Below, piece after piece: positions 19,751-64,000 of a stretch of 64,000 nt of DNA. The stretch is from an uncultured bacterium (GTDB lineage Bacteria; Patescibacteriota; Saccharimonadia; UBA4664). The translations under genes and the position numbers were made by a program. The stretch spans positions 520,704 to 584,703 of the forward strand of contig CAVRET010000002.1 in the NCBI GenBank assembly GCA_963720265.1. Direction: 5' to 3'. The notes below the pieces were generated by a model. The model did not search any database. It worked only from the letters and a program-made list of their open reading frames with translations, and had not been told where the DNA came from. The number at the start of each line of letters is the position of its first letter. Within the stretch, counting starts at the first letter, position 1.

Positions 19751-20052
19751 GACCGTGACGGGTTCTTTCAGAAATGCTGGCCTCAGGGACATAACCTTAA
19801 AAATATTGAGTATGTGCGCGTAACAGAAAATGCTGATGAAGTTATCATCACGCATGAATACGCTAAGCCAGACGGCGCCAAGGGGCGCAATACCGACGTA
19901 ATTACATTTGATGGAGATAAAATCATCCGTTTGGAAGTCTATTTTGGTTGGGACACAAAAGACTGGTAGTTGTTTTCAGAATTCCTGCCAAACAATCCTC
20001 GGAAATTTTCCCCTAAGATACGTCAGAGAACGTAAGACGCAAGGGGAACTAC

Positions 20053-39660: not shown

Positions 39661-39666
39661 CCGGGG

Positions 39667-40524
39667 TTGGGGGAGCGGCTTACAGCATATTACTGGCTGA
39701 CAAAGCCGGGAATTGTCTACGGCAACCTGTTGCCGGCCGCAGCTGGGTTTTTTCTGGCTTCGCGCTGGGAGGTTAACTGGCTCAGGCTTGCCGCCATGCT
39801 GGTAGGCCTGGGCCTCGTCATTGCCTCGGCCTGTGTGTTCAATAACATGCTCGACCGTAACCTCGATGCCAAGATGGCCCGCACCCGCCGCAGAGCGCTT
39901 GTTACGGGCCGGATATCACTCACCGCGGCCCTCATCTATGCCGCAGCGCTCGGGCTCATCGGCACTACCTTGCTCGCTGCCTGCACTACCGGGCTCGCTC
40001 TCGCCTGTGCCCTGGCCGGCCTCGTGGGCTATGTAGTGGTCTACGGCGTGGCCAAGCGCCGCACCACTGCCGGCACCATTGTTGGCAGCCTACCAGGCGC
40101 CGTCCCACCGGTTGTGGGCTACACCGCAGTAACCGGTCATTTCGACCTCGCCGCCGCTCTGCTCTTCGCCACGCTTGCCGTCTGGCAAATGCCGCACTTT
40201 TACGCCATCGCGCTCTTCCGCGTTCACGACTACACGACAGCAAACCTACCCGTTTTACCCGTAAAGCACGGTGCCGCAGTCACCAAGCGCCACATTCTCG
40301 CCTATATTGTTGCATTCACCGTTATCTCACCGTTGTTAACGGTGTTTGGCTACACGGCCTGGCCTTATCTCGTGGCCATGATTGCGCTCGGCCTCGCTTG
40401 GCTAGTCCTTGGCATACGTCGTTTCCGCACCGAAAACAACGCGGCTTGGGGTCGCATAATGTTTCGCTTTTCATTGATCGTGTTGCTTGCGTTCAGCCTG
40501 CTTGTTAGCCTTACGCCAACCTAA
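39667..40524 (+). CDS. cyoE: protoheme IX farnesyltransferase (haem O synthase)
   Basis: UbiA-family polyprenyltransferase with NMLDRNLDAKMARTRRRAL motif. TTG start per the track. Confidence 0.8.
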   Translation: MGERLTAYYWLTKPGIVYGNLLPAAAGFFLASRWEVNWLRLAAMLVGLGLVIASACVFNNMLDRNLDAKMARTRRRALVTGRISLTAALIYAAALGLIGTTLLAACTTGLALACALAGLVGYVVVYGVAKRRTTAGTIVGSLPGAVPPVVGYTAVTGHFDLAAALLFATLAVWQMPHFYAIALFRVHDYTTANLPVLPVKHGAAVTKRHILAYIVAFTVISPLLTVFGYTAWPYLVAMIALGLAWLVLGIRRFRTENNAAWGRIMFRFSLIVLLAFSLLVSLTPT

Positions 40525-40532
40525 ACGGCTAG

Positions 40533-40814
40533 CTACTTGTAGTACCGCTTACGTGCCAGCCGGCGGTTGAGTCTCATCGCGATCGTGCCGCCGCCATATC
40601 GGTACATAACGACAAAATATACAATCGTTAACAGTGGCGGCGCTGTCGCAGCCGCGCCATAGATCGAAACGCCATTCGATATCGACTTGCCGAATAACAT
40701 TCCCGTTAGCACTGTGAGTACAAAAAAAACGAGTATGGCTTCAAAGATCGAGTCGAGAATCAATATAAACTGAAGGATCCAGGTCGGGAACAGTACATAT
40801 TGCTTTGCTTTCAT
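40533..40814 (-). CDS. small membrane protein, unknown function
   Basis: 2-3 TM helices, 93 aa. Confidence 0.35.
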   Translation of the reverse strand: MKAKQYVLFPTWILQFILILDSIFEAILVFFVLTVLTGMLFGKSISNGVSIYGAAATAPPLLTIVYFVVMYRYGGGTIAMRLNRRLARKRYYK

Positions 40815-40921
40815 AAAGGCCCTGCTTTGTGGATATTGTGGTGCGCGGGCGTCAATTATGTCAACTGCACGAAGACCAGGCTTGCGCCCAGATACCCAAT
40901 CCGCTTATGATTGTAACTGAT

Positions 40922-42166
40922 ATGGCCACACAACAATCTCAAACCAAGGTCGTAATCGTTGGCGGCGGCTTTGCCGGCGTGCGGGCGGCGCGCAAATTAG
41001 CGCCTCACCGCGAGCTTGCCGTCACGCTGATTTCGGCCGAGCCCACGTTTTCGTATTACCCACAGCTCTACCACTCGGCCACCGGCGGCTCACGTTCCGA
41101 ATCGGCCCTACCGCTCAACGAGTTGTTGGCCGGACTACCGGTGAGCCTAGTACACGACACTGTCGCCACCATCGATCCCGCCGCCCGCATCGTTGCTTCC
41201 GCCGGCACTAGCTATACCTACGACCAGCTCGTTCTCGCCCTGGGATCTGTCACTAACTATTTCGGTATCCAGGGTCTGCCCGAATTCAGCTACGACATCA
41301 AATCTCCGAGCGGCGCTGAGCGGTTCAAGCGCCATCTCCACAAACAGCTCGTTGACGACAAAAAGCCGGACCTCAACTACGTTGTCGTCGGCGGCGGTCC
41401 CACCGGTGTTGAGCTAGCGGCCGCGCTCGGCAGTTACCTCCGCTACGTCACCAAAAAGCATGGTATGAGCGCGCCCAAGTATTCGATTGATCTGGTGGAA
41501 GCCGCTCCGCGCCTATTGCCTCGTTCAAGTGAGGCCACCAGCGCCAAAGTTACCAGCCAACTCCAGCACCTAGGCGTGAATGTCATGACGGCTCAAACCG
41601 TCCAGGCTGAAACTGCCGACGCCCTCCAGCTGGCCGGCCAATCACTTGCTACCAAAACTGTCGTCTGGACCGCCGGTGTCGCCAACAATCCGTTCTTTAA
41701 AACCAACGCCGCCCACTTCACCCTGTCCAAAAACGGCCACGTCGAGGTTGACGAACATCTTCAAGCCGGGCCGAATGTTTATGTACTCGGCGACAATGCC
41801 GTGACCCAATATGCCGGCATGGCTCAAACCGCTATTGATAACGCCGATTTTGCCGCCGCCGACCTCCTGCGGGTAGTGCACAGCCAACCCAGGTCGGCCT
41901 ACAAGCCGGCCGCGCCTGCCAGCGTTATCCCGGTGGGTGAGCACTGGGCGGTAGCCGACTGGGGCGTACTGCACCTAAACGGTTTTGCCGGCTTTATGCT
42001 CCGCCGTGCCGCTGATCTTATTGGATATGCCGATGTCGAATCCTGGTCCAAAGCGCTGGGAGTTTGGCTGGCCGACGGCCGCCGCGAAGACGACTGCCCT
42101 ATTTGCCAGCCGGGCACGCCCCAGGCTACCACTCCGCCCGAAGTTCAACCCGAAACCGAAGCCTAA
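40922..42166 (+). CDS. ndh: type II NADH:quinone oxidoreductase (NDH-2)
   Basis: Two dinucleotide-binding motifs: VVIVGGGFAGVRAARKL and VVVGGGPTGVELAAAL. Start chosen at ATG 40922. Confidence 0.8.
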   Translation: MATQQSQTKVVIVGGGFAGVRAARKLAPHRELAVTLISAEPTFSYYPQLYHSATGGSRSESALPLNELLAGLPVSLVHDTVATIDPAARIVASAGTSYTYDQLVLALGSVTNYFGIQGLPEFSYDIKSPSGAERFKRHLHKQLVDDKKPDLNYVVVGGGPTGVELAAALGSYLRYVTKKHGMSAPKYSIDLVEAAPRLLPRSSEATSAKVTSQLQHLGVNVMTAQTVQAETADALQLAGQSLATKTVVWTAGVANNPFFKTNAAHFTLSKNGHVEVDEHLQAGPNVYVLGDNAVTQYAGMAQTAIDNADFAAADLLRVVHSQPRSAYKPAAPASVIPVGEHWAVADWGVLHLNGFAGFMLRRAADLIGYADVESWSKALGVWLADGRREDDCPICQPGTPQATTPPEVQPETEA

Positions 42167-45949: not shown

Positions 45950-46618
45950 CTACCGCACCGGCACGTCGTATATACGATCCAGGATTTCCTGAGCCGTCAG
46001 GTGAGTGCCGTCAAACGGCTTGCCAATGCCAATCCGAAACCGCCTCCCCAGCCGCGTTTTCTGCCACTCAATGTGAGCTGGCACCACCATCGCCTGGTGC
46101 GAGTGCGCCAGCACCTCCACACCGCTCCGCGTGCGCGCCTGCCCGCGAATCGTCCGCCGGCCCTCGGGGAAAATAAATACTGTCCGCCCCATTTTAAGCT
46201 GCTTCAGGCCATATTCCAGACCACTCGGCCACTTAGGCGTTGTGCGTGCCGGGAAGCACCCCAGCGCCATAATAAGCGTGCGCAGCCCTGGCACCATCAG
46301 TCCGTTTGCTGCAAAATAGCGCAGTGTGCCCATATGCTGCCACACTCCAAACGGAAACTGTGAGCAAACAATGAATGTGTCCGCAATTGACTGGTGATTA
46401 GACGCAATAATGTAACGCGAACCATGCACTACATCGGTGGTCTCAATCTGAATCCGCCGAGACCGTCGCATGGGGACTGCCAGGACCTTACAGAGCCAAT
46501 ATGCCGCTCGCACGTTAAAATGGATAAGCCGCTCGCCCGCAGGAGTCTCGAGCAGCCAAACCCTACGCCTCTCCCGCGTCTTTTCAGGAACTCGTCCAAA
46601 ATGTTCTACTGTAAGCAC
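45950..46618 (-). CDS. plsC: 1-acyl-sn-glycerol-3-phosphate acyltransferase
   Basis: NHQSIADTF (HX4D) and FPEGRRT motifs. Confidence 0.8.
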   Translation of the reverse strand: MLTVEHFGRVPEKTRERRRVWLLETPAGERLIHFNVRAAYWLCKVLAVPMRRSRRIQIETTDVVHGSRYIIASNHQSIADTFIVCSQFPFGVWQHMGTLRYFAANGLMVPGLRTLIMALGCFPARTTPKWPSGLEYGLKQLKMGRTVFIFPEGRRTIRGQARTRSGVEVLAHSHQAMVVPAHIEWQKTRLGRRFRIGIGKPFDGTHLTAQEILDRIYDVPVR

Positions 46619-46681
46619 GTGTGTCAGCCGTTACAGAAAAATCTTGCATAAATGATACCATAATGATATAAAGAAGTCAAC

Positions 46682-47419
46682 ATGAATCTGACGATAAAAG
46701 AGCTCTCCAAAGCTGTATCCTACGCAGCGATGTTACAAAAGAACCGGGCTGACGTTCGCTCCGGCATTGTTACCGAAGCACAAGCCCTGAAAAAAGCCAA
46801 GCAACTTCATGCAAAGGTTTTTCTCTCACGCGGGTATATCACTGATGCAGATTTAACGACCGAAGGGACCATTGACACAAATGAAGACCCGTATCAGGAG
46901 CACTCGGAGTATTTTGTAGTTGAACGACTGATTGATAGTGAGTGGCGTATCCAGGCTGTCGCCCGACTCATTCATTTCCATCCTGAAAAACAAGACAGCT
47001 CGTTCCAGACGCTAGTGCACCAGGATGTGAACAAAGAAAGCCGTGAGTTAATTCAGCTTGTTGGGCTTGAAAATTGTTTTGAAGTTTCCGGGCTTGTTAA
47101 GGAAACAGGAGAGAGTACGTTAGCGGTCATGTTTCTATATCGAGAAATGTGGCAATATGCCCTCATGAATGGACAAAAATTATGGCTCATGTCATGTGAC
47201 GCTGGGCTGTACAAACGGCTAAGTTTTCTATTCGGAAATGCCTTTCAGCAAATCGGCAAAAAGTCCTTCTTTAAAGGGCACGATGTCATACCTGCGCTAC
47301 TCGACATCAGAGGCTCGATCAGCGTGTTCACTGGCAAAACCAAAAGCCGAAATCCTGCAACAAAGTTGCTGCAACACCGGCTTGCAAATTTTTTCCTTAG
47401 CGGCCTGCCAACAGAATAA
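46682..47419 (+). CDS. GNAT-fold N-acyltransferase resembling LuxI autoinducer synthases / N-acyl amino acid synthases (putative)
   Basis: Conserved-block order AKVFLSRGY...D.NED.Y...EYFVVER...IQAVARLI is similar to the LuxI/FeeM layout. By-eye call only. Confidence 0.3.
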   Translation: MNLTIKELSKAVSYAAMLQKNRADVRSGIVTEAQALKKAKQLHAKVFLSRGYITDADLTTEGTIDTNEDPYQEHSEYFVVERLIDSEWRIQAVARLIHFHPEKQDSSFQTLVHQDVNKESRELIQLVGLENCFEVSGLVKETGESTLAVMFLYREMWQYALMNGQKLWLMSCDAGLYKRLSFLFGNAFQQIGKKSFFKGHDVIPALLDIRGSISVFTGKTKSRNPATKLLQHRLANFFLSGLPTE

Positions 47420-47453
47420 GCCGACCGCTGATTAATCATGCTAGCATTAGCTT

Positions 47454-49628
47454 ATGTTAAGCATAAGGTTTATAGGGCTGACCCTTGTTGCGATCGTGTC
47501 AGTCATGATCGGCGCTATTACCCTTATAAGCAATAAAAAAGCCTACTCAAGCAGAGTGTTTGCCGCTCTCAGCAGTATTAGCGGCACCTATGTACTCGTT
47601 AATTACCTGGCTGATCACGATCAAGCTCGCGGACTATTTTGGGTACGAGGCACTTTTTTCCTAGCAACGTTTATGGTGCTTTTCTTGACACTGTTCCTAA
47701 ATCGGTTCCCGAGACGCAAGCTCCCAAGGCGCTGGGATGTCTGGCTGAGCTCAGTGGCGGTAATGATGGCCGTCTTATCGATATTGCCGGTATTTGTGCC
47801 TCGGGTAGTGCTTACGCCTGGAAGAACAAACGTTGTGCACGGTCCTCTGTATTCAGTTTTCCTTGTATTCCTTGCAGTTTACCTGGGAATAGCGATTTAC
47901 TGTGGCATTCGAGGTTTTCGAGAAGCTGAGCGTCTCGATCGTTTGCGGCTTAGATATGTGATCTTTGGCATATTCATAACGGCTTTTCTACTCATTCTGA
48001 CAAACGTTGTTCTGCCACTAATTCAGGGGCATGACACATATGCAGACCTGGGGTCATACTTTATCTTGATCTACGCCAGTTTCACCGCATACGCCATCAT
48101 CCGTCACCGCCTCTTCGATATCCGCACCGTCGTTGCTCGTTCGGTAGCCTACACCCTACTGCTCGCCACACTGGCCGCCTTCTACGTCGCCGCTGGGTTT
48201 GCCTTCACGAGCATATTTTCACCTAGCGACACGGCTTCAAAGACCCAACTCGTGCTCAATACCGCGCTCGCCCTCATTTTGGCATTTACCTTCCAGCCGC
48301 TGCGGCGGTTCTTTGAGCGGGTTACCGACCGCGTGTTTTATCGCGACCGCTACGACTCCCAAGTAGTCTTAAGCAGCTTCTCCAAAATCCTTGTCTCCGA
48401 ACTGGATCTCGACCGCATCTTAAAGCGCGCGCTGCAAGAATTATGCGAATCAGTGCACATCGAATTCGGCCAGCTTATCATCTTTAACCACGACCGTGTC
48501 TATCGTGTCGAGCACTACGGCCCGCTGCCCAAACGCCTCATGGTTGCCCCCGAGCTGGCGCGCCTGGGCCATGTCATGCTGGTGGCCGACGAGCTCGAGG
48601 GCGGCGAGCGTAAGACCCTGCTCGACCGCCACGGCATCCGGGTGGCGCTCAGCCTGCGCACCCGCGAAGAATTCGTCGGTTACCTCCTCTTGGGTGACAA
48701 ACTGTCCGGCGACATTTACTCCGGCCAGGACCTCAGGCTCCTCGAGATTATCGACAAAGAGCTCGCCGTGGCCATTCAAAACGCCAAGTCCTACGCCGAA
48801 ATCCGCGAATTTAACGTCACACTGCAAGCTCGCATTGAGCATGCCACCAACCGCCTGCGCGTCGCCAACCGTCACTTAAAGGAGCTCGACCGCGCCAAAG
48901 ACGAGTTCATTTCCATGGCCTCGCACCAGCTGCGAACCCCGCTCACTACCATCAAAGGCTACCTCTCAATGATGCTCGAAGGCGACGCCGGCCGCCTCAC
49001 CAAGCAGCAAAAGGAATTCGTGGATTACGCTTTTGGCGCCTCCGAACGTATGGTCAACCTGATTTCCGACCTGCTCAATGTTTCGCGCCTCAGCGCCGGA
49101 CGCTTCCTTATCCAAACCAAGCCCACCGATATGGTGGGGATGATCGACGAGGAAGTACACCAGCTTAAGCAGCACGCTGCCGCCAAGGGCCTCAAGCTTA
49201 TCTTCGAGCGTCCATCGCACCCTTTACCCCCGGCCCAAATCGACGACAACAAGACCCGCCAGGTCGTCATGAACTTCATCGACAACGCCATTTACTACAC
49301 CCAAACCGGCGAAGTGCGCGTTATCCTCACGCAGGACAGCGACCACGTGCGGCTCGAAGTGCACGACACCGGCATCGGTGTACCCGAAGCGGCTCGCAAA
49401 AAACTGTTCACCAAGTTTTTCCGTGCCGGCAACGCCCAGGACATCCGGCCCGACGGCACGGGCCTAGGCCTCTATCTTGCGAAACGCGTCATTCAAGACC
49501 AGGGTGGTACAATTATATTCAGTAGCGTGGAGGGTAAAGGATCGACCTTTGGGTTCGAACTACCCTTCAAGCCCCAACCTGTAATCCACAAGGACGAGCA
49601 TGACAGAGTCCACGCCCACACCCGGTAA
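47454..49628 (+). CDS. sensor histidine kinase with ~7-TM N-terminal domain, GAF-like region, HisKA and HATPase_c
   Basis: About seven hydrophobic helices in the first 270 aa. H-box MASHQLRTPLTTIKGY. N, G1 (DTGIGV), and G2 (GTGLGLYLAKR) boxes. Confidence 0.85.
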   Translation: MLSIRFIGLTLVAIVSVMIGAITLISNKKAYSSRVFAALSSISGTYVLVNYLADHDQARGLFWVRGTFFLATFMVLFLTLFLNRFPRRKLPRRWDVWLSSVAVMMAVLSILPVFVPRVVLTPGRTNVVHGPLYSVFLVFLAVYLGIAIYCGIRGFREAERLDRLRLRYVIFGIFITAFLLILTNVVLPLIQGHDTYADLGSYFILIYASFTAYAIIRHRLFDIRTVVARSVAYTLLLATLAAFYVAAGFAFTSIFSPSDTASKTQLVLNTALALILAFTFQPLRRFFERVTDRVFYRDRYDSQVVLSSFSKILVSELDLDRILKRALQELCESVHIEFGQLIIFNHDRVYRVEHYGPLPKRLMVAPELARLGHVMLVADELEGGERKTLLDRHGIRVALSLRTREEFVGYLLLGDKLSGDIYSGQDLRLLEIIDKELAVAIQNAKSYAEIREFNVTLQARIEHATNRLRVANRHLKELDRAKDEFISMASHQLRTPLTTIKGYLSMMLEGDAGRLTKQQKEFVDYAFGASERMVNLISDLLNVSRLSAGRFLIQTKPTDMVGMIDEEVHQLKQHAAAKGLKLIFERPSHPLPPAQIDDNKTRQVVMNFIDNAIYYTQTGEVRVILTQDSDHVRLEVHDTGIGVPEAARKKLFTKFFRAGNAQDIRPDGTGLGLYLAKRVIQDQGGTIIFSSVEGKGSTFGFELPFKPQPVIHKDEHDRVHAHTR

Positions 49629-50803: not shown

Positions 50804-52132
50804 ATGCCCTTGCCCCAACGTCGCCAGGCCGTTCCACCTGATCCTCTGGCACAGTATCAATCAAGCATCAATCGCGCCGCCGTGGCTGCAGGCCCGTCTC
50901 GGGCCAGGTGGTCGCGTAACGGTGGTACCGTCCATCACCAGCCGGCCAAGCCCATGCGCCCGCCACGCAATCGCGGCCGCATCATCCGCCGCAGCCTGCT
51001 TGGCCTATTTGGACTTATTATCATAAGCGGCGTCATTTTTATCTTTACCGCCGGCCACGGCAAATTCAGCCTGGCCAGCCTGCTCGGATCAGCCGCCGAG
51101 ACCTTTTTGGGGCATGGTCCGGCCATTGCCGGCCAAACCACCGGCCGTACCAATTTCCTCATCTATGGCATGACCGAGGACGGCCTGCGCACCGATTCCA
51201 TCATGCTGGTCTCGTATTACTGGCAACAGAAAAAAATCGTTACCCTCAACATTCCCCGCGACCTCTACGTTTACGACGGCTATGAGAACGACAAAATGGG
51301 CGAAGTTTACGCCTATGCCAAGGCCCGCGAACCCAAAAATCCAAGTTACCCGGACCAATACGTAGCCCAGGTTATTTCGAAGGAGTACAACATCCCCATC
51401 AATTACTGGGTTCAATTCAACATGCAAGGCGAAGTGGATTTCGTAAACGCCCTCGGTGGCATTAACATCGACGTGCCTGATTCATTCACCGACTGCGAGT
51501 ATCCCACCTGGGATTACTCCGGCTATGTGCGGCCGTGCCCCAGCTTTACCGCCGGTGAGCAACACATGAACGGCGCAACCACCCTCATTTACTCCCGTAG
51601 CCGGCACGCTACGCAAAATGGCGAAGGCTCGGATTTTGCCCGCTCCAAGCGCCAACAGCTCGTCATCGAAGCGGTTATGGTAAAGCTCAAGAGCATGGGG
51701 GTGGTCGGCAACCTAACCGAAGTTTCGCACTATCTCAATATTTTGGGCGACAATCTCACTACCAATATGTCCACGTCCGAGATGGTGAGTTTTGCGACCG
51801 AGCTTAAAAATATTAGCCCGCAAACCGACTACGTCCGGGCGGCCTGGGAGACGGGCAACGGCTTCTTGTGCGACAGCTCAACCACCAGCGGCGAATACAT
51901 TACCCTCTACGGTCTCAGCGACACGTGTACACTCGGCACGAGCGGTATCGGCGCCGGTGGCTACCATGATTCCGAAGCCCGCGAGCTGGCGATCTACTTC
52001 GTCCAGCACCTGCTCTCAAGCGGACCCATGACGCCGGTCAATTTTGTCACCACGGCCGAAACCGCGCTTGGCTACACGCAGAACGCATCATCTTCGTCAT
52101 CCGCAACATCCACCTCCTCGGGCACGCAATAA
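50804..52132 (+). CDS. LCP family (LytR-CpsA-Psr) cell-envelope phosphotransferase
   Basis: TM anchor followed by NFLIYGMTEDGLRTDSIMLVSYY...LNIPRDLYV, which matches the LCP core. Confidence 0.8.
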   Translation: MPLPQRRQAVPPDPLAQYQSSINRAAVAAGPSRARWSRNGGTVHHQPAKPMRPPRNRGRIIRRSLLGLFGLIIISGVIFIFTAGHGKFSLASLLGSAAETFLGHGPAIAGQTTGRTNFLIYGMTEDGLRTDSIMLVSYYWQQKKIVTLNIPRDLYVYDGYENDKMGEVYAYAKAREPKNPSYPDQYVAQVISKEYNIPINYWVQFNMQGEVDFVNALGGINIDVPDSFTDCEYPTWDYSGYVRPCPSFTAGEQHMNGATTLIYSRSRHATQNGEGSDFARSKRQQLVIEAVMVKLKSMGVVGNLTEVSHYLNILGDNLTTNMSTSEMVSFATELKNISPQTDYVRAAWETGNGFLCDSSTTSGEYITLYGLSDTCTLGTSGIGAGGYHDSEARELAIYFVQHLLSSGPMTPVNFVTTAETALGYTQNASSSSSATSTSSGTQ

Positions 52133-52592: not shown

Positions 52593-52978
52593 GACAGAAC
52601 GGCCAGCGCAGCCGCCGCGAACAAAATTGCCACATCCCGAAAAACAATGTCCAGCGCTGACAGATTTGTGAGCATAATGCCAAGCACAGTCACGCCCATC
52701 AGCGCTGCCGCGTACCGTCCGAGTCGCCCGGTCAGAATCCACAGCGCCAACACGAGCTGGTAAAAGGCAAAAAACTTAAGCGCAAGCGTCGCCGGCACTA
52801 CGCGCGTCACGGCGGCCGGCACGTAGCCGGCCCAATGGTCTGGTTGCAAGGTCGAACCAATCGTTGCATACAGCAACACCAAAGCCAAGCCAATTCTCAG
52901 CAACCACACAGCCCAGACTATTCTCTTCGTGCTTACGCTTGCCATTACTCGCAAGTATAGCGCAACCGGTGATACCAT
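52589..52978 (-). CDS. DoxX-family membrane protein
   Basis: 4 TM helices with a DoxX-like length and pattern. Start chosen to avoid overlapping the divergent gene. Confidence 0.45.
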   Translation of the reverse strand: MVSPVALYLRVMASVSTKRIVWAVWLLRIGLALVLLYATIGSTLQPDHWAGYVPAAVTRVVPATLALKFFAFYQLVLALWILTGRLGRYAAALMGVTVLGIMLTNLSALDIVFRDVAILFAAAALAVLS

Positions 52979-52985
52979 AAATGAT

Positions 52986-54830
52986 ATGTCCAAATCAAAA
53001 TCAGCTGTCACGATAAGGCCTCTGCGCCTAGCCGACGTTGGTGCGCTGCACCGGTTATTCAATACCGCACTCGACACCGACTTCCAATACTTTCCAGCCT
53101 CGCACATTGGCAAGATCAGACGCCAAAATAGTCCATTGCACCTTGCCATAGCCAGGCTGCGCCACCACCGCCAGATCCTGGTCGCAGTGAAACGCCACGA
53201 CATTGTGGGATTCGCCTTTGCCAGTACTCAGGCGGAAGGCGTCGGCCACCTCTATTGGCTCTACGTTTCGCCTGACCTGCGCGGCCAAAAGCTCGGCGAC
53301 CGCCTAATGCAGGCCACGCTCGACGCGCTGAAACGCCGTGGGATGCACGCTGTTGAGCTTGTGACCTATAATTTTGATGGGTACTACCGCCGGCTTGGCT
53401 TTTGGGATCGTGGCACCACCAGTCAAGAGGGGATTGAACTGCACGTGATGCAGCATGACTTTCCGCCGCGAACCAAAGGAGCCGTCATTAAACGTAAAAC
53501 TCGCCGCACCCATGCCCATACTCGCCGCCGGAGTCTGATCCGCTTGCCGTTCTGGATTGGCCTGCTCGTGGCAGTAACCACGGCTGGGGTAGTGCAGAGT
53601 TACTATCCGGCCGACACGCCGTTTCAGGTCATCCCAGTGCCCGCGAGCAAAAAGCCAAAAGTTGTAGCCACGGTGCCAACTCAGGCACCCGGCGGCATCG
53701 TGCAAGTGGTGAGTGACCAAACCTACACGCCGGAACAAGTCACAGACTTTGCCAGGCAAAATTACGGCCCCACCTTTGCTGCCAGCAAGTATGCCGTTAC
53801 CTACGAACTTATTCGCTACCTCTCGACTGACCAAAACGGAAATCTCATCACTGATTACGCCGGCGTCTATGTTCCGCAAGGGGTCACCAACGCTTCAGTG
53901 TTCGCTATGGCGCCCGGCACCACCGGCGACTCGCCGACCTGTGCCGTGAGTCTCGAACAGCCGCAGGTGCGCAACTGGGCCAACTACCGCAGTTACATGA
54001 TGAGTTACGCCGCCAAGGGCTACGTCGGCGTCATCACAGATTACGACAACATGCGCGGCACCGACGGGCCGCAGCCCTATATGGTGGCCGAGGCCGAGGG
54101 CCGGGCTGTGCTCGACAGTATTCGGGCACTCAGGCACTTGCCGCTGGCAGTTCAGGCCAGTAACATGCACCGCGTATTTGTGGCCGGCTATTCACAGGGC
54201 GGACACGCCGCGTTAGCCGCCGACAGCATAGCGGCCACCTATGCGCCCGATGTCAGTATCGCCGGTGTCGTCGGCTGGGGGCCAGTTATTAATGTTGAGA
54301 CTACCTGGGCCGGCATAGGCCGCGGGTCCACGCTGGAATGGTTTGGCCCCTCTATCCTCGTCGGCTATGAGAATTATTATGGTCATCACTACCCAATTGA
54401 AAACATTTTGCAGCCGCAGTACGTTGGATCACTGACCACCGATGTTATGTCGCATTGTGTCGATAGTGTTATCCCGTTTTGGGGCACGCACCCGGAAAAA
54501 GTCTACACTGCCCAATTTCTGACTGATCTCAAGGCCGGTAACCTGCCCGAAGCACTTTACGGTGACCTCCAGGCTGACCTTGATGCCAACGATGTCGTCG
54601 ACACCTCGGATACGCCCAAGCTCTTGAACCAGGGTGCGCTCGATAACGTCGTGCTAGCCGACCAGCAACCCGCCGCGGTCAAGGCCATGTGCCATGACAC
54701 CACGCCGGTTGATCTCGCCATCTATCCCAAAGATACGCACTACGACCTCATGGTCGCCAGTTTCAACAATGTCCTCACCTGGATGCAAAACGTGCTCGCT
54801 CATAAGCCGCTGCCTACTACCTGTCCCTGA
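52986..54830 (+). CDS. fusion protein: N-terminal GNAT acetyltransferase, TM helix, C-terminal secretory-lipase-like (LIP family) alpha/beta hydrolase
   Basis: GNAT motif A (LYVSPDLRGQKLGDRLMQA), a TM segment (LPFWIGLLVAVTTAGVV), then a lipase nucleophile elbow GYSQGG and a C-terminal Cys pair. Confidence 0.6.
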   Translation: MSKSKSAVTIRPLRLADVGALHRLFNTALDTDFQYFPASHIGKIRRQNSPLHLAIARLRHHRQILVAVKRHDIVGFAFASTQAEGVGHLYWLYVSPDLRGQKLGDRLMQATLDALKRRGMHAVELVTYNFDGYYRRLGFWDRGTTSQEGIELHVMQHDFPPRTKGAVIKRKTRRTHAHTRRRSLIRLPFWIGLLVAVTTAGVVQSYYPADTPFQVIPVPASKKPKVVATVPTQAPGGIVQVVSDQTYTPEQVTDFARQNYGPTFAASKYAVTYELIRYLSTDQNGNLITDYAGVYVPQGVTNASVFAMAPGTTGDSPTCAVSLEQPQVRNWANYRSYMMSYAAKGYVGVITDYDNMRGTDGPQPYMVAEAEGRAVLDSIRALRHLPLAVQASNMHRVFVAGYSQGGHAALAADSIAATYAPDVSIAGVVGWGPVINVETTWAGIGRGSTLEWFGPSILVGYENYYGHHYPIENILQPQYVGSLTTDVMSHCVDSVIPFWGTHPEKVYTAQFLTDLKAGNLPEALYGDLQADLDANDVVDTSDTPKLLNQGALDNVVLADQQPAAVKAMCHDTTPVDLAIYPKDTHYDLMVASFNNVLTWMQNVLAHKPLPTTCP

Positions 54831-54847: not shown

Positions 54848-56044
54848 ATGGGTCGTATGGCAAGACGGCGCTTATCCGAATATCGCGCCAAGCAGCTTCT
54901 CGCAAGCGCCCTGGGGCAGCTCTATGCCGGGCTCGAACTCGACGCCGAAACCGATTGGCGAGCAGTACTCGCGGACTTACGTAGCCCACAGCATTACGTG
55001 ATAAAGGTTGACCAGGCTGTAAAGGGCCGCTTCAAGCAAGGACTGGTCCTACTCAATGTACCGGCCGCACAGACGCCCGCGGCCGCCCAGACATTATTTG
55101 ACCGGGGGTTTCGATACCTGCTGGTGGAAACCTACACGCCTCACGACCGTGTAGCTGAGTGCTATCTGGCGATCAGGCGCGGACGCGGAGCCGACGCTGT
55201 ACTGTTCTCGGCCAGCGGCGGGGTCGATGTGAACGAACATGCCGATGCGGTTACCGGCGCCGAATTCTCACCAGCCTCGGCCGGCGACGCCGAATCTGCG
55301 CTTGGCCTGACCACGGGCACATTGGAGCGCTTGCATGAGCTGTTTAATGCTGTCCATATGACCCTTCTCGAACTCAACCCACTCCTGGTTGTGGAGCATG
55401 AGCTCGTAGCACTCGATGTGGCGGCCGAGGTTGATGCCGCGGCCGAGCACCTCGTGGCCGGCCGGTGGACCGCCGGTGATCTGCGCCGGGCTGCCTTGTT
55501 GCCCGAGGAGGCCGCGGTTGAACAGCTTGGCGCCCACAGTCCGGCTTCATTTAGCCTCAAGCCGCTCAATCCGGACGGTGCCGTCTTCGTACTTTTGTCC
55601 GGCGGCGGCGCCAGCCTTGTGGTGACCGATGAATTTTGCCACCAAGGTTTTGGCCCACAGTTGGCCAATTACGGCGAATATTCCGGCGACCCCAGCGAAT
55701 CCGAAGTAGCCGATTATGTAAGGCAGGTGCTCTCGTTGCTCAAAAAATCCCAAGCTAAGGCCAAAGTGCTTGTCATCGGCGGCGGCGTGGCCAACTTCAC
55801 GGACGTGCGCACCACGTTCAAAGGCATTATTCGGGCACTGAACGAAGCGCAACCATGGCTACGTGAACACGACGTAAAAGTGTACGTTAGGCGCGGCGGC
55901 CCGCACGCGGCCGAAGGCCTCGCGCTCATGCGCGAGTTTCTGGATCAGGCGGGACTACTTGGCCTTGTGGCCGGCCCGGAACTCGGCTTGCCCGAGCTCG
56001 TTACGGCCGCTACCGCACGCCTTGGAACCAAGGCCGCAGCATGA
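54848..56044 (+). CDS. aclB: ATP-citrate lyase beta-like subunit (ATP-grasp, succinyl-CoA-synthetase-beta fold)
   Basis: 398 aa. Blocks NYGEYSGDPS, VIGGGVANFTDVRTTFKGII, and VYVRRGGPHAAEGLALM parallel bacterial AclB. Confidence 0.7.
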   Translation: MGRMARRRLSEYRAKQLLASALGQLYAGLELDAETDWRAVLADLRSPQHYVIKVDQAVKGRFKQGLVLLNVPAAQTPAAAQTLFDRGFRYLLVETYTPHDRVAECYLAIRRGRGADAVLFSASGGVDVNEHADAVTGAEFSPASAGDAESALGLTTGTLERLHELFNAVHMTLLELNPLLVVEHELVALDVAAEVDAAAEHLVAGRWTAGDLRRAALLPEEAAVEQLGAHSPASFSLKPLNPDGAVFVLLSGGGASLVVTDEFCHQGFGPQLANYGEYSGDPSESEVADYVRQVLSLLKKSQAKAKVLVIGGGVANFTDVRTTFKGIIRALNEAQPWLREHDVKVYVRRGGPHAAEGLALMREFLDQAGLLGLVAGPELGLPELVTAATARLGTKAAA

Positions 56045-57855
56045 GCATTATTCCCGACATTGAGCGCTTGCGCAGGCAGGATCCACGCATAATTGTTCTA
56101 GGCTCCCACCCGGCCGCTGTGCAAAGCATCCTCGACTTCGACGCCCTGGCAGGCCGGACCGCAGCCTCGGTTATGGCCATAATCGCCGCCGGCCGAAGAT
56201 CTGAGCGCTACTACTTTGGCCGCCGTGAGCTTATCCTGCCGGTCTATCCAGATATCACTGCCGTGCCGAAAAGGCTTCGTGTCGAGGCCGGCCTGTTTTT
56301 AAACGTGCTCTCCGGCCGCCGCGTCGCTCCTGCCACGCTCGCGGCGCTCGAACAGCTACCAAATCTCGTGGGTGGCGTAATTTTTGCCGAACGGCTGCCT
56401 GAGCTATCCTCGCTTGAGCTCGCTCGCGCCGCCACCAGCCGCAGCATATGGATCATCGGCGGCGCTAGCACCGGCCTACTCATTCCCGGCGCGCTCAAGC
56501 TTGGTCCCATTGGCGGCGTAACGCCTGAGCAGCTTATTGCAGCGCCCATTCACGCACCGGGCAACGTCGCGGTTGTGGCTGTTTCCGGCGGTATTACAAA
56601 CGAACTCATTCATCTCGTTACCTCAAGCGGCCATCTGGTGTCATTTGGCGCCAGCGTCGGTGGCGAACGTTACCCTTCGGCTGAGCCGGCCGACCTCCTG
56701 CTGGCAGCCGAATCCGATCCAGCTACCACGCACATCGTCTATTTTGGTGAACTCGGCGGCACGGACGAATACAAAATTGCCGAACTCATGCAAACCGGCC
56801 GGCTCACCAAGCCGCTGTACGCCTACATTGCCGGCCGCAGTGCCGAGCTGTTTCCCGAACCGCCCCAGTTTGGCCATGCCGGGGCACTCGCAAACAGTCC
56901 GGCCGAGTCGGCTGCTGCTAAATCTGCCGCCCTTACCGCCGCCGGCGCTCACGTTGCGCCCACTTTTGCTAACCTAACCGAGGACATTATGAATTTACCC
57001 AAATCAACCACTCAAACGTCCGCGCCCGCGGCCGCTGAAGCCATCACGGGTCGTCCGCCGGCCCGCTTGTTCGCCAGCACTATCTCCCGCGACCGCGACG
57101 ACGGCACAGTTGAAGTACTTGGCCAAACCTTGCTCGATTTCTCAAAATCCCATTCCTTTGCCGGGCTTGTAGCGGCACTCTGGCTCGGCCAGAACAAAAT
57201 TTCACCAGAACTCGAGGCTGCTGTCGATTTCATTCTGCGTGTCTCAGTCGAGCATGGTCCTTACCAAGCCGCTGCCATCAATACCGTCACATCTGCCCGG
57301 GCCGGTGTTGGCCTCACCCAGGCACTCACCGCAGGCCTGCTGACCATTGGCCCGCGCTTCGGCGGCGCCGTCAATCAATCGGCCGCCATTTGGCTGTCAG
57401 GCGTCAAAAATCATACGTCGGCCGCCGAGCTTGTCGAAAACTTGGCAGCCCACGGCGACACTATTGCCGGCATCGGCCACCGCAAGTATTCCCGTCACCA
57501 GCCCGATCCGCGCGTCGCCGAAATCCTCGCTTTTACCAAAACCCTAAAATCCCACCCATTCACCGACCTGGCGCTTGAAGTTGAGGCCATTACCACTATC
57601 AAAAAATCCATCCTCATCTTAAACGTCGACGGCGCCATCGCCGCCGTCCTGCTCGACCTCCTCCACGGCCCGCAGGGCTACGACTTTGTTGAGCTCCAAC
57701 GCCTGGTTGACGTTGAATTCTTCAACGCTTTCTTCATCCTCAGCCGCTCAGTCGGCCTCATGGCCCACTATTTCGACCAACTCCGCCTAGGCGAAGGCCT
57801 CTTGCGCCTCAGCCCCGACGACGTCGCCTTTGTCGAACAGCCAAATTCCAAATAA
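56041..57855 (+). CDS. aclA: ATP-citrate lyase alpha-like subunit (CoA-ligase domain with phospho-His loop plus citrate-synthase-like domain)
   Basis: Phosphohistidine loop FGHAGALAN. C-terminal LLTIGPRFGGAVNQSA resembles the ACL/citrate-synthase GxRFGGA block. ATGA overlap with aclB. Confidence 0.65.
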   Translation: MSIIPDIERLRRQDPRIIVLGSHPAAVQSILDFDALAGRTAASVMAIIAAGRRSERYYFGRRELILPVYPDITAVPKRLRVEAGLFLNVLSGRRVAPATLAALEQLPNLVGGVIFAERLPELSSLELARAATSRSIWIIGGASTGLLIPGALKLGPIGGVTPEQLIAAPIHAPGNVAVVAVSGGITNELIHLVTSSGHLVSFGASVGGERYPSAEPADLLLAAESDPATTHIVYFGELGGTDEYKIAELMQTGRLTKPLYAYIAGRSAELFPEPPQFGHAGALANSPAESAAAKSAALTAAGAHVAPTFANLTEDIMNLPKSTTQTSAPAAAEAITGRPPARLFASTISRDRDDGTVEVLGQTLLDFSKSHSFAGLVAALWLGQNKISPELEAAVDFILRVSVEHGPYQAAAINTVTSARAGVGLTQALTAGLLTIGPRFGGAVNQSAAIWLSGVKNHTSAAELVENLAAHGDTIAGIGHRKYSRHQPDPRVAEILAFTKTLKSHPFTDLALEVEAITTIKKSILILNVDGAIAAVLLDLLHGPQGYDFVELQRLVDVEFFNAFFILSRSVGLMAHYFDQLRLGEGLLRLSPDDVAFVEQPNSK

Positions 57856-57940
57856 ATCCTCTAAAAACAGGAGGACCCCACGAGCACGACGGCCCTCGTG
57901 GGGTTCCTGTCGCGCCCGCAGGGCATGATTGTGGTGGACG

Positions 57941-58561
57941 CTACCACCGGTTCGCCTGGCGCGTAACTACCAGGTCGCCGTGGCGTCGGTTGTGATCAGC
58001 GTGCATCTGGCCGCGTCGCACTACTGGCACACCGCGGTCCTGGGCGTCGTTAATGCGGCCCGAGATGAACTGGGCGATCGATGAGGCGGCTGCGACGTTT
58101 CCGGCGTCACCCAACCCACAGACCGCGACCAAGACCAGGGTATTGCCACGGCCGGCCATTTCACAGCTGGGCTCCGCAGGGAATCCCCAGCGGGTGTCGC
58201 TTGCCGGCACTTCGCGGCTCGGCCTCCTCATCATGACGCTGATGTACATCATCTGCAACGCCCAGGCCGTAGCCCTGACATCGCCGAATCGACAGCCAGC
58301 CAGTTCAAGCGGGTCGCCGATTGCGTGCTCGTAGCAACCGAGGTGGTTTGTGAGGTTGGCGATAACTCCGCCTGACTCGCCATCTGCAAGCAGAGACAGT
58401 CCGTCGACCGGCTGTCCGCGAAGGCCCAGCATGTTCGCATGGACCAAGTTGGCAATCGCGGCGCAGTCAACGGTCTCCTCCCACATCAAACTCGTCGGAA
58501 TCCGCTGGACTATATCACCCGTGACAATGAACTTATCCACGCACGAACCCTTCCATGTCAA
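57941..58561 (-). CDS. hypothetical protein (high-GC island)
   Basis: 206-aa ORF in a markedly GC-rich segment. Confidence 0.3.
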   Translation of the reverse strand: MTWKGSCVDKFIVTGDIVQRIPTSLMWEETVDCAAIANLVHANMLGLRGQPVDGLSLLADGESGGVIANLTNHLGCYEHAIGDPLELAGCRFGDVRATAWALQMMYISVMMRRPSREVPASDTRWGFPAEPSCEMAGRGNTLVLVAVCGLGDAGNVAAASSIAQFISGRINDAQDRGVPVVRRGQMHADHNRRHGDLVVTRQANRW

Positions 58562-58756: not shown

Positions 58757-59464
58757 TCAGCCCGTGGTGACCGCATCGTCCGCGGTCGCGTACTCGACCT
58801 GCAGGTTGACCAGGTGCGCGTACGGGCTCTCACCCGGCGGCGTGTTGCGGTAGATCAGACTGCCAACGAACATGGCGGCGGCGACCCCCAGAGTCGGATC
58901 CTCTATCTGGCTCGCGGCGCTGAATCCGCCGAGTCCCCACAGGTGCCCGATCTGGAACAGCTCCACACCACCGAACGGGAAGACGCCCATAGTAAAACGG
59001 CCCTGGTCGTCGACCGACGGGACCACGCACGGGAACCCGTACTCGTCGAGCACGAGCTCGAATGTGCCCTTGTAGTCGTTCTGCTCGAGGGCCGCCTGGA
59101 GCCAGCCCAGGGCCTTGCGGAAGACATTTGCCTGGTAGCGCGGCATCTCCACCGTCCCCGAGCCCCAGGCGACCGCCGCCAGCACACCGTACGGGTTCTC
59201 GGCCGCCGCCCGGACGAGGTCGTACGGGTCGCGGTACAGCCTTGAGACCAGGCCGCCGAAGTGCTGCGGCGCCTTCATGGTGAGCAGGGTGGCGCTGGTC
59301 GCGCCGTCCACGCGGACGATCCGATTCCTGGCGCCAGCCGCGATCAGGGGCTCCATGAAGGCCGAGGTCGAGGCGCCGAGGTCGACGCCGCGGTACACGG
59401 TCCTGATCGGGAAACGCAGCGTGTCGACGAAGCCGCCGTCCTGGAGGATCTGGAGCAGTTCCAC
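58757..59464 (-). CDS. hypothetical protein (high-GC island)
   Basis: 235-aa ORF, same orientation as its neighbour. No recognised motif. Confidence 0.35.
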   Translation of the reverse strand: MELLQILQDGGFVDTLRFPIRTVYRGVDLGASTSAFMEPLIAAGARNRIVRVDGATSATLLTMKAPQHFGGLVSRLYRDPYDLVRAAAENPYGVLAAVAWGSGTVEMPRYQANVFRKALGWLQAALEQNDYKGTFELVLDEYGFPCVVPSVDDQGRFTMGVFPFGGVELFQIGHLWGLGGFSAASQIEDPTLGVAAAMFVGSLIYRNTPPGESPYAHLVNLQVEYATADDAVTTG

Positions 59465-62068: not shown

Positions 62069-63424
62069 CTAGCTCTTGGCGTCCACTAGTTTGCCCCGAA
62101 TCCCCACGGCCGAAATCAGCCCTCCGAGCACGAGTAGCACTACCATTACCACCACTCCGCGCCGAAAACCAGCCAAATCAAGCGAGCCCACTACCACGCC
62201 AATCGCCGCCACAGCCACCAGCCCGGCAATGCGCGCGATGGCATTGTTCACGGCCGAGCCGATCCCGGCGTGCTCCGGCTTAATGCTGCCCAGCACCGCC
62301 GAGGTCAACGGCGCCACGGTCATCGAGAGCCCCAGGCCGAATAACAACACGCCCGGCAGCAGCTGGGTCCAATAAATGACCTTTGCGTTCACATTCAGCA
62401 TAAGTAAAAATCCCATCGCCGCCACGATTGGTCCAAACGTCATAAACCACCTCGGCCCAAACCGCCCGGCAAGCGCCCCAAACCTAGGCGACAGCACAAA
62501 CATAATGAGCGTCACCGGCAGCAGGCTCAAGCCGGCCTCAAACGCCGAGTAGTGCCCAAATTGCTGTACAAACACCACCACCACAAACGTCGCCACAGAC
62601 AGTGCTCCATAAATTGCCGTGGTCGCCAAATTGCCAAACGTAAAATTCCGCACCTTAAAGAGTTCCAGTGGCAGCATCGGATCACGCGCCTTGTCCTCGT
62701 ACCAAATAAACCCTGCCAGCAGTCCGACCCCGAGCACTAGCGGCACCCAAATGAGTGGGCTAGTCCAGCCAAACTTCGGCTGTTCAATCAGCGCAAACAC
62801 GGTGCCGCCCAGACCCAAGGCACACAGCCACGCGCCCAGCCAGTCGATGCGCGTGTTTTTGCGCTCGTCACCCGCCAGCTTTACCCGTTGTAGCAGCCAC
62901 AGCGTAATCGCAATAATTGGCACATTGATCGCAAACACCCATCGCCACGAACCCGCATCCACGAGTGCACCGCCCACCAGCGGGCCGATAATAAACGAAA
63001 TCCCGGTCCAGGCCGTCCATGTGCCAATGGCTTTGCTCTGCGCCTCGCCACTAAAGCTCGCGATGATAATCGCCAGCGAGCTCGGCACCAACAGCGCGCC
63101 GGCCGCCCCCTGCACTGCCCGTGCGCCAATCAAAAACCCGGCGCTAGGTGCTAATGCGCATGCTACCGATGCGATCCCAAAACCGGCCAGCCCCAAAGCC
63201 AAAATCCGTTTGCGCCCCACAATATCCGACAAACTCCCGGCAATCAAAATCAGCGAACCAAGCGTCAGCAGATAGGCATCAACCACCCATTGTTGTAGCG
63301 TGAGGCCGCCGCCCAGGTTTTTCGCCATGGCCGGCAACGCCACGTTCACCACCGAGCCGTCCAAAAACGCCACCAAAGACGCCAAGATACTCACGACCAG
63401 CACTAACCGCTGCTTGCTGTTCAT
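62069..63424 (-). CDS. MFS transporter, DHA2 (14-TMS drug:H+ antiporter)-like
   Basis: 14 predicted TM helices, GxLaDrxGrR-like motif (DIVGRKRIL). Start chosen at MNSKQRL; the track ORF extends to 63562. Confidence 0.75.
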   Translation of the reverse strand: MNSKQRLVLVVSILASLVAFLDGSVVNVALPAMAKNLGGGLTLQQWVVDAYLLTLGSLILIAGSLSDIVGRKRILALGLAGFGIASVACALAPSAGFLIGARAVQGAAGALLVPSSLAIIIASFSGEAQSKAIGTWTAWTGISFIIGPLVGGALVDAGSWRWVFAINVPIIAITLWLLQRVKLAGDERKNTRIDWLGAWLCALGLGGTVFALIEQPKFGWTSPLIWVPLVLGVGLLAGFIWYEDKARDPMLPLELFKVRNFTFGNLATTAIYGALSVATFVVVVFVQQFGHYSAFEAGLSLLPVTLIMFVLSPRFGALAGRFGPRWFMTFGPIVAAMGFLLMLNVNAKVIYWTQLLPGVLLFGLGLSMTVAPLTSAVLGSIKPEHAGIGSAVNNAIARIAGLVAVAAIGVVVGSLDLAGFRRGVVVMVVLLVLGGLISAVGIRGKLVDAKS

Positions 63425-63559
63425 ATTGCAACCGCTTTCATGGCTAAAGCATAACCTCTTCATCCACTGGGCGCCATTGTTATATCTGAACGCATGCGTT
63501 ATGAATGGTATAGCCAAAATCAGCCCCCGCTTGTAAAGCGGCCGCCCGAAGGAGCACAA

Positions 63560-64000
63560 CATGACAGATGCGCGACTGCCACGGTTTATCAGCGAACTAA
63601 CGCTGGACCGGTGGGGCGCCTTCGTCCGCGGCGCAGCCCCGGACGGAGCCCGCGGTAGCAGTATCGATGGGAGGCCGGCCGTCGCCGCGCTAGCGGGCGC
63701 CAGGCTCCTGCGCCTCGGCGATCCCGTGGCTAACGCCTACCTTACGGCTTTGTATCGAGTCTGGTTCGAAGCGTGGACCCAGGACAATCGCTGGTTCATT
63801 CTGGCGCTCCTCATGCGCGAGCCGGGCCGGGAGCCAAAGCGGCTGTACATGCCCGGCAGGGGCGACTACGATAATCAGTTCGTGAGCCTGCTTGATACAA
63901 TCGCGCTCAACGACTCGCTCCGGCCGGTGTTCGAAAGCGCAGTCGAGCGCGATCGCGCCGCCCGGGAGCGCGTGGCGGGAAGTCAACCGCATTCGCTCGA
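63560..64000 (+). CDS. hypothetical protein, partial (runs off the window's 3' edge)
   Basis: AAGGAG Shine-Dalgarno 6 nt before ATG 63560, with an open frame to the window end. Absent from the track because it has no stop in the window. Confidence 0.4.

Follow-up and report, generated by a model that had tools for sequence, protein, structure and literature searches.

A two-subunit ATP-citrate lyase encoded beside an acetyltransferase fusion gene in a Saccharimonadia bacterium, and its proposed role in acetyl-CoA supply

The aclBA gene pair

The window analysed here is a stretch of 64 kb from a 1,108,292-bp contig of a Saccharimonadia bacterium, a member of the Candidate Phyla Radiation (CPR), and represents about 6% of a genome of ~1.1 Mb. 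Two overlapping genes of the window, aclB and aclA, are near certain, as judged from their translations, to specify a genuine, complete and intact two-subunit ATP-citrate lyase (ACL, EC 2.3.3.8). The aclB gene (54848..56044, + strand) encodes the small (β) subunit, 398 amino acids long, with ATP-grasp and citrate-binding domains. The large (α) subunit of 604 amino acids is encoded by aclA (56041..57855, + strand); in it, CoA-binding/ligase domains that carry a GHAGA loop with H279 are followed by a C-terminal citrate-synthase-homology (CSH), or citryl-CoA lyase, domain. The two reading frames share 4 bp (ATGA), and Met4 of AclB (at 54857) is a possible second start.

An initial annotation, made from the DNA letters, had described an ACL-like pair at this position, and its open reading frames (ORFs) are present with the coordinates and lengths that it gave. 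The motifs by which it recognised the proteins are all found in the translations: NYGEYSG, GGGVANFTDVRTTFKGII and VRRGGP in the small subunit, and QFGHAGALA and LLTIGPRFGGA in the large one. The order of the genes, AclB and then AclA, and the domain architecture that it assigned to them are borne out by Pfam domains and by alignments to proteins of known structure in the PDB.

Identity of the enzyme

AclB matches two Pfam models over almost their whole lengths: Citrate_synth_N, the ACL-type ATP-grasp domain (94.8 bits, cut-off 83, model positions 2-232 of 232), and the ACL-specific Citrate_bind (179.2 bits, cut-off 26.8, model positions 3-174 of 177). AclA has a match to Ligase_CoA and a C-terminal match to Citrate_synt (66 bits over residues 362-582). 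Both subunits were also compared by phmmer with all PDB chains, and identity was judged from the ranking of bit scores rather than from a tree with named references. AclB aligns end to end with human ACLY (1.9e-62, 215 bits, human residues 22-415), followed by ACLY-A of Methanothrix concilii (9.8e-55, 189 bits) and AclB of Chlorobium (6.9e-30, 108 bits), with CcsA (7e-7, 32 bits) and SucC (6e-5, 26 bits) much lower. The ranking for AclA is the same: human ACLY (9.7e-99, 334 bits, query residues 15-598 of 604; ~38% identity across 494 aligned positions), M. concilii ACL (4e-91, 309 bits) and Chlorobium AclA (8.4e-64, 219 bits), then SucD (2e-20, 76 bits), CcsB (2e-15, 60 bits), Ccl (3e-14, 55 bits) and citrate synthase (31 bits). 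Both subunits are therefore nearer, by bit score, to characterised ACLs than to succinyl-CoA synthetase (SCS), to citryl-CoA synthetase and citryl-CoA lyase (CCS/CCL) or to citrate synthase. By score ranking, not by a tree, the window ACL appears to be on the eukaryote/Methanothrix-like rather than the Chlorobium-like branch of the family.

The other members of the superfamily were considered in turn. The NCBIfam models of SucC give 50.1 and 48.3 bits (cut-offs 375.55 and 370), and those of SucD give 107.7 and 102 bits (cut-offs 336 and 353.2). In addition, the α-like protein has 604 residues with a citrate-synthase-like extension, whereas SucD has ~290 residues and no such domain. For CCS/CCL, the Hydrogenobacter thermophilus proteins score 32, 60 and 55 bits, as against at least 108 bits (AclB) and 219 bits (AclA) for any ACL, and the lyase-like domain of the window protein is formed by residues ~345-604 of the ligase polypeptide, not by a free-standing protein of ~260 amino acids. 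The citryl-CoA lyase models of NCBIfam give 35-71 bits against cut-offs of 193-409, and its citrate synthase models fall far under their curated cut-offs. The initial annotation had left room for a citryl-CoA synthetase/lyase variant; this is ruled out by the fusion of the lyase domain to the SucD-like part and by the low CCS/CCL scores.

Functional residues and selection

When functional residues were mapped from the alignments to human numbering, 19 of the 19 that were checked proved identical to those of human ACLY. In the ATP-grasp domain of AclB they are K53, K59, R61, E104, N177 and D190 (human K58, K64, R66, E118, N203 and D216), and in its citrate site G280, N316, F317, T318 and R349 (human G309, N346, F347, T348 and R379). 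In the ACLY crystal structures, human G309, N346, T348 and R379 are the citrate-binding positions, with F347 as a gate. In AclA, E117 corresponds to human E599, and H279, within QFGHAGA, to the phosphohistidine H760. The CSH domain retains H405, H480, R481, D530, R569 and R589 (human H900, H975, R976, D1026, R1065 and R1085). The catalytic histidine and the residues of the citrate-synthase-like domain, which the initial annotation had singled out as decisive, are thus all present, and the outcome that it had named as speaking against an ACL, ordinary SCS lacking citrate-synthase residues, is not what the profile models and the alignments give.

The roles of H760, E599, F347, D1026, H900, R976 and R1065 in ACLY have been described, and there is an unsettled debate on whether citryl-CoA is cleaved in the synthetase-like or in the citrate-synthase-like domain (PMC10115795). 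The debate leaves the assignment as ACL unaffected, because both sets of residues are intact in the window pair. Measured against the ~80% identical relative at locus L009, dN/dS is 0.13 for both aclB and aclA, with dS near saturation, and the two genes are under purifying selection.

Two variations were seen among the relatives. In the alignment of AclA sequences, most CPR proteins have GHAKA in place of the canonical phosphohistidine loop GHAGA, which is kept by the window protein and by P0005. Two of 11 AclA sequences, P0012 and that of Woesebacteria locus L001 (L001:10001-11800), have Asn at the position of human H900, and these relatives may use the citrate-synthase-like site differently.

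The upstream fusion gene and the transcription unit

Directly upstream of aclB is a gene (52929..54830, + strand) for a fusion of a GNAT domain, a transmembrane (TM) helix and a lipase, with matches to Pfam Acetyltransf_1/7/10 and LIP. The GNAT domain spans residues ~25-180, a hydropathy peak marks the TM helix at 203-223, preceded by the basic stretch KRKTRRTHAHTRRRS, and the LIP-family lipase occupies ~290-630. This layout predicts a cytoplasmic, acetyl-CoA-using GNAT domain tethered to an extracytoplasmic secretory lipase; an extracellular lipase would suit an organism unable to make fatty acids. The gene has a dN/dS of 0.12-0.19, indicating purifying selection.

The stop codon of the fusion gene and the start of aclB are separated by a spacer of 17 nt. 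No terminator-like site was found between the two genes, and scans for promoter and terminator consensus sequences gave nothing meaningful inside the operon. The fusion gene is probably co-transcribed with aclBA, and its GNAT domain is a candidate acetyl-CoA consumer coupled to ACL. Directly after the aclA stop, a strong hairpin without a T-run (57867..57910) lies between convergent genes, the next ORF (57941-58561) being on the minus strand. The RNA of 57856-57925 folds with -33.7 kcal/mol (z = -3.2 relative to shuffled sequences). The hairpin is likely the end of the transcription unit, and it is not a canonical intrinsic terminator, because it is without a T-run.

The fusion gene also lies directly upstream of aclBA at loci L009 and L010, whose AclA proteins are 81% and 61% identical to that of the window. 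Indeed, the whole order of genes for histidine kinase, response regulator, DUF2127, LCP, cupredoxin, GNAT/lipase, AclB, AclA, proteins of unknown function, BacA or PAP2, and a major facilitator superfamily (MFS) protein is kept at both. The LCP gene (50804-52132) and the lipase fusion reported by the initial annotation are real. Its view that a position next to the lipase fusion was unexpected did not stand, as the arrangement GNAT-lipase-aclB-aclA is conserved down to 61% AclA identity. The adjacency is not odd because it is one instance of a widespread linkage between aclBA and acetyltransferase genes, to which we now turn.

Neighbourhoods of aclBA in CPR genomes

The best 120 database relatives of the window proteins are 49-81% identical to them, and their named sources are all Saccharimonadia, Saccharimonadales or Patescibacteria; matches in genome collections came from metagenome-assembled genomes (MAGs) of Woesebacteria, Roizmanbacteria, Saccharibacteria and Patescibacteria. 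Altogether 92 CPR aclBA loci with ~750 kb of flanking DNA were compared. Genomes supplied 7 of them, exact-protein look-ups 4 and metagenomes 80, and the window itself is the last. ORFs of at least 80 amino acids were clustered, and the recurrent clusters were annotated. Eighty-five loci were usable, their flank being 700 bp or longer on one side, and genes on the same strand with gaps of no more than 150 bp were taken to form a tight chain.

The aclB gene is ahead of aclA in all 75 loci for which the upstream region is available, usually with the 4-bp overlap. A tight chain joins aclBA to an acetyltransferase, hexosamine or peptidoglycan gene in 37 of 85 loci (44%); when the loci are de-replicated at 70% AclA identity, the figure is 22 of 52. 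By class, such chains reach an acetyltransferase gene in 27 loci, a hexosamine gene in 15 and a peptidoglycan gene in 5. A gene of these kinds lies within 1.5 kb in 48 of 85 loci (56%), or 31 of 52 after the same de-replication. For a genome of ~1,000 genes with perhaps a dozen such genes, we estimate that chance adjacency would amount to a few per cent. The commonest neighbours are GlmS (15 loci), two families of free-standing GNATs (12 and 10 loci, with median gaps of 3-4 bp) and MurB (11). GDP-mannose-dehydratase-type epimerases (11), GT1 glycosyltransferases (10) and sugar-1-phosphate nucleotidyltransferases (two clusters, 8 and 7) come next, followed by GlmM, Acyl_transf_3, CofD/YvcK and VanW (6 each) and Ddl (5). 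The recurrent GlmM scores 458 bits, above the NCBIfam equivalog cut-off of 447.55.

These genes occur in several arrangements. With NT for nucleotidyltransferase and AcylT3 for Acyl_transf_3, they include glmS-cofD-GNAT-aclBA, glmM-GNAT-aclBA, aclBA-glmM-GNAT, aclBA-NT-glmS, AcylT3-aclBA-glmS, aclBA-murB, ileS-recO-GNAT-aclBA and GNAT-aclBA. Of the 27 GNAT ORFs that a profile search detected in the flanking DNA, 22 adjoin aclBA, 3 are in the arrangement aclB-aclA-glmM-GNAT and 2 lie elsewhere. Three unrelated GNAT subfamilies fill the position adjacent to aclBA in three AclA lineages. The variety of the arrangements and the three GNAT subfamilies argue for repeated selection of the linkage, and not for inherited synteny alone.

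As to what the adjacent GNATs are, the subfamily of ~150 amino acids has its best PDB match in diamine acetyltransferase (1.8e-16) and matches GNA1, the glucosamine-6-phosphate N-acetyltransferase, weakly (5e-7 to 7e-4), while that of ~200 amino acids has no significant PDB match. Matches to the NCBIfam models of RimI and MshD fall below threshold. The order ileS-recO-GNAT(~150 amino acids)-aclB-aclA is conserved at L060, L064, L066, L071, L080, L091 and L092; a DUF11 gene and a class II aminoacyl-tRNA synthetase gene follow aclA at L060, L064, L066 and L080, and the sequences of L071, L091 and L092 stop at aclA. In these ileS-recO loci, the sole metabolic partner of ACL is the GNAT, which is RimI-like or diamine-acetyltransferase-like; the stop codon of its gene lies against the start of aclB or overlaps it. 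Two loci from MAGs labelled 'uncultured Gammaproteobacteria', L003 and L007, have a CPR-style neighbourhood (glmS-cofD-GNAT-aclBA; CofD, RmlA-like, HAD); the labels are probably wrong or the bins contaminated.

A proposed role in acetyl-CoA supply

We consider it likely that the window encodes a functional heteromeric ACL that acts as a generator of acetyl-CoA from citrate for use in acetylation, and not in CO2 fixation. Following the catalytic mechanism expected from family membership and the conserved residues, AclB would bind ATP and citrate, and His279 of AclA would be transiently phosphorylated; citryl-phosphate and then citryl-CoA would be formed, and the latter would be split into acetyl-CoA and oxaloacetate. 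The citrate is probably host- or environment-derived, and the oxaloacetate by-product is probably transaminated or reduced. The acetyl-CoA would be used by co-encoded acetyltransferases and in amino-sugar and cell-envelope biosynthesis. Its immediate partner in the window genome would be the GNAT domain of the fusion protein; in related CPR bacteria, the partners would be free-standing GNATs, Acyl_transf_3 O-acetyltransferases, GlmS, GlmM, sugar-1-phosphate nucleotidyltransferases and MurB. That the physiological role is to supply acetyl-CoA for envelope and amino-sugar acetylation seems, on balance, probable.

Synthesis of UDP-GlcNAc needs acetyl-CoA, as is established from the biochemistry of GlmU. 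Complete genomes of Saccharibacteria reportedly lack both pyruvate dehydrogenase (PDH) and pyruvate:ferredoxin oxidoreductase (PFOR), whence the statement that 'acetyl-CoA metabolism appears to be lacking', and they have essentially no genes of the tricarboxylic acid (TCA) cycle (PMC6031116). As Saccharibacteria reportedly lack PDH and PFOR, the window ACL is best read as an enzyme that supplies acetyl-CoA from citrate for cell-envelope acetylation. A non-autotrophic supply of acetyl-CoA or oxaloacetate from citrate in a small heterotroph had been the preference of the initial annotation; it is the best supported of the readings and matches the published view of CPR enzymes (PMC6851277). It is tempting, although tentative, to go further and propose that CPR bacteria without PDH and PFOR keep ACL as the dedicated source of acetyl-CoA within a compact module for cell-envelope acetylation and UDP-GlcNAc supply. 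In this module, aclBA would be co-transcribed with genes for GNAT or Acyl_transf_3 acetyltransferases, with glmS, glmM and murB and with a sugar-1-phosphate nucleotidyltransferase gene, and host-derived citrate would be the acetyl donor for wall synthesis.

Several points weigh against acetyl-CoA supply as the role. A biochemical characterisation of any CPR ACL was not found in the literature searched. In the window, no citrate transporter was found near aclBA, and none recurs in the neighbourhoods of the 92 loci; the nearby MFS gene (62069-63562, - strand) was ruled out as a citrate importer, its product being a DHA2/EmrB-type efflux pump (231 bits, cut-off 230.2). In this window, glmS and glmM are not adjacent to aclBA, and murB is 50 kb away. 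The synteny signal is partly a matter of shared ancestry. Another source of acetyl-CoA, such as Pta acting on phosphoketolase-derived acetyl-phosphate or an acetyl-CoA synthetase, is an alternative, 64 kb of ~1.1 Mb having been inspected. Finally, the adjacent GNATs could instead regulate ACL by lysine acetylation.

Alternative explanations

If the enzyme does split citrate, what is the product for which it is kept? In a catabolic or anaplerotic use, oxaloacetate would be the main product, feeding aspartate, malate, phosphoenolpyruvate and pyruvate, or citrate would supply the cell with carbon and energy, with acetyl-CoA converted to acetate and ATP recovered. A class I/II aminotransferase gene does lie within a few kilobases of aclBA in 5 loci, and Sieber et al. 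propose oxaloacetate and acetyl-CoA as central carbon currencies of a Gracilibacterium (PMC6851277). However, the aminotransferase is never in a tight operon chain, as it lies at a distance of 2.6-6.2 kb, often on the other strand, and the genes that are tightly linked to aclBA consume acetyl-CoA, not oxaloacetate. By stoichiometry, moreover, one ATP would be spent in splitting citrate and one regained from acetyl-CoA, for a net gain of nil. We regard this use as unlikely. An ATP-yielding citrate synthase role of ACL in Desulfobacter postgatei was reportedly described by Moeller et al. in 1987, and the window enzyme might likewise run in reverse, making citrate and ATP from acetyl-CoA and oxaloacetate. 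The reaction is reversible, ACLY being able to join acetyl-CoA and oxaloacetate into citryl-CoA (PMC10115795), and no separate citrate synthase was seen in the 64-kb window. Reverse operation would nevertheless require the very source of acetyl-CoA that Saccharibacteria reportedly lack (PMC6031116), as well as a citrate exporter or TCA enzymes acting downstream; no gene for any of these recurs near aclBA. The linkage to acetyl-CoA-consuming enzymes argues instead for net acetyl-CoA production, and we find operation in this direction rather improbable.

The classical role of bacterial AclBA is as a key enzyme of the autotrophic reverse TCA (rTCA) cycle. The family and the two-subunit architecture are those of Chlorobium, and aclAB is scored as an rTCA marker in many metagenome pipelines. 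For the window pair, such a role is very improbable. The host is a CPR bacterium with a contig of ~1.1 Mb, from a group whose genomes, as noted above, are essentially without TCA genes, and the window ACL is more like the eukaryote/Methanothrix type than like that of Chlorobium. There are no TCA genes in the 64-kb window, and genes for 2-oxoglutarate:ferredoxin oxidoreductase, fumarate reductase, PFOR, aconitase and isocitrate dehydrogenase were found neither there nor, as TCA or rTCA genes, among the recurrent neighbours of the 92 loci. We give the least credence of all to the view that the pair is not an ACL, that is, an SCS or CCS/CCL variant or a decayed remnant. In its favour are the public names of relatives, 'succinyl-CoA synthetase alpha subunit' or 'citrate/2-methylcitrate synthase'. 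These names are contradicted by SucC/SucD and citryl-CoA lyase scores below the cut-offs and ACL-specific Pfam domains above them, by the fusion of the lyase domain as in ACL, and by intact ORFs with conserved residues and a dN/dS of ~0.13.

Comparison with known citrate-cleaving enzymes

The closest solved prokaryotic match, over the full length, is the ACL of Methanothrix (Methanosaeta) concilii (PDB 6hxi/6znw). It shares the split into a subunit of ~400 amino acids with ATP-grasp and citrate-binding domains and one of ~600 amino acids with CoA-ligase and CSH domains, and its host is likewise non-autotrophic in the rTCA sense. That host is an archaeon, however, whereas the window proteins form part of a distinct CPR clade, and the association with GNAT and hexosamine genes was examined within the CPR clade. 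Human ACLY, the best-scoring solved relative, has catalytic, citrate-binding and CSH residues identical to those of the window pair. It is a single fused chain of 1101 amino acids with a regulatory linker, in contrast to two polypeptides from overlapping genes. Its role is the one proposed here: in a compartment that has no pyruvate dehydrogenase, it makes acetyl-CoA out of citrate. The product of eukaryotic ACLY goes mainly to lipid synthesis and histone acetylation; the sinks of the window enzyme would be GNAT and O-acetyltransferase reactions and the acetylation of amino sugars.

AclBA of Chlorobium limicola (PDB 6hxj) has the same gene order, subunit architecture and chemistry as the window pair. 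It is clearly more distant, and it serves a complete rTCA cycle for CO2 fixation, of which there is no indication in the window. CcsAB and Ccl of H. thermophilus (PDB 6hxq, 6hxp) have homologous domains and carry out the same overall two-step chemistry with three polypeptides, one of them a free-standing lyase, whereas the lyase domain of the window protein is fused to the SucD-like part.

Two-subunit ACLs are known from the same kind of organism. Sieber et al. (2019) call the enzyme of a Gracilibacterium 'rarely detected in CPR', with archaeal proteins as its nearest matches, and read it as an enzyme that turns external citrate into acetyl-CoA and oxaloacetate (PMC6851277). A 2025 study names aclAB as one of the functions in which Saccharimonadia MAGs are enriched (PMC12577380). 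The presence of ACL in this lineage is thus not new, because both papers have already reported it in CPR, and the enzyme itself is an ordinary member of its family, so that the novelty is modest; the informative part is its genomic context. Neither the retrieved passages of these two papers nor the other literature searches gave any mention of operon linkage of aclBA to acetyltransferases or to glmS, glmM or murB, or connected the enzyme with the missing acetyl-CoA source of Saccharibacteria.

Consequences for annotation and for CPR metabolism

Metagenome surveys routinely take the presence of ACL genes to signal autotrophic CO2 fixation. For this locus and ~90 CPR relatives, that inference is almost certainly wrong. 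The large subunit of the clade tends to be named 'citrate/2-methylcitrate synthase' at NCBI; in JGI records it is sometimes 'ATP citrate (pro-S)-lyase' and sometimes 'succinyl-CoA synthetase alpha subunit'. A survey that relies on names would miss or misread the CPR genes, and one that relies on KEGG aclAB would count them as rTCA markers. As a consequence of this inconsistent naming, the enzyme is both over-interpreted and under-counted.

The coupling in operons of CPR ACL to acetyltransferase genes and to genes for UDP-GlcNAc and peptidoglycan precursors offers a specific, testable hypothesis. If it is true, it would explain how N-acetylated sugars are synthesised in Saccharibacteria with 'no acetyl-CoA metabolism', and the CPR enzyme would be a bacterial counterpart of the eukaryotic cytosolic route from citrate to acetyl-CoA. 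A role in acetyl-CoA supply also predicts a metabolic dependency on citrate, which could be of help in bringing these episymbionts into culture. The operon linkage of aclBA to GNATs of three independent subfamilies, in turn, singles out uncharacterised acetyltransferases of interest.

Other features of the window

The window encodes MurB, LCP and UppP beside an aerobic respiratory module at 35851-42166 (+ strand), which consists of an operon for a haem-copper quinol oxidase of the cyo type (subunits II, I and III), including protohaem farnesyltransferase (39667-40524, + strand), followed by a type II NADH dehydrogenase, NDH-2 (40829-42166, + strand). The oxidase and NDH-2 fit the oxic-adapted Saccharimonadia described in PMC12577380, and this gene content suits the aerobic Saccharimonadia known from soil and groundwater.

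Convergent with aclA are two minus-strand ORFs, 57941-58561 and 58757-59464, without Pfam or NCBIfam matches. Genes of similar size are found at the same place at L009 (184 and 218 amino acids) and, as a single gene of 216 amino acids, at L010; by size and position, the two ORFs are candidates for conserved lineage-specific proteins and may be such.

Genes for tRNA-Arg (9539-9613) and tRNA-Lys (10068-10144) precede a stretch of ~10 kb (~10000-20000) with a GC content of 0.47-0.50, compared with 0.55-0.61 elsewhere. Among its ORFs are one for a PRK/uridine-kinase-like protein, one for a ROK-family protein and several that match no family; the stretch may be a horizontally acquired island. A further low-GC patch lies at 46001-48000. 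Glycoside hydrolase family 59 (GH59) is known chiefly from animals. A GH59 protein is therefore notable in a CPR bacterium: the gene at 6566-9094 (+ strand) encodes a secreted-looking protein of 842 amino acids whose catalytic domain is a full GH59 domain of the galactocerebrosidase type (336 bits), accompanied by the C-terminal lectin domain of that family and by a ricin-B lectin domain.

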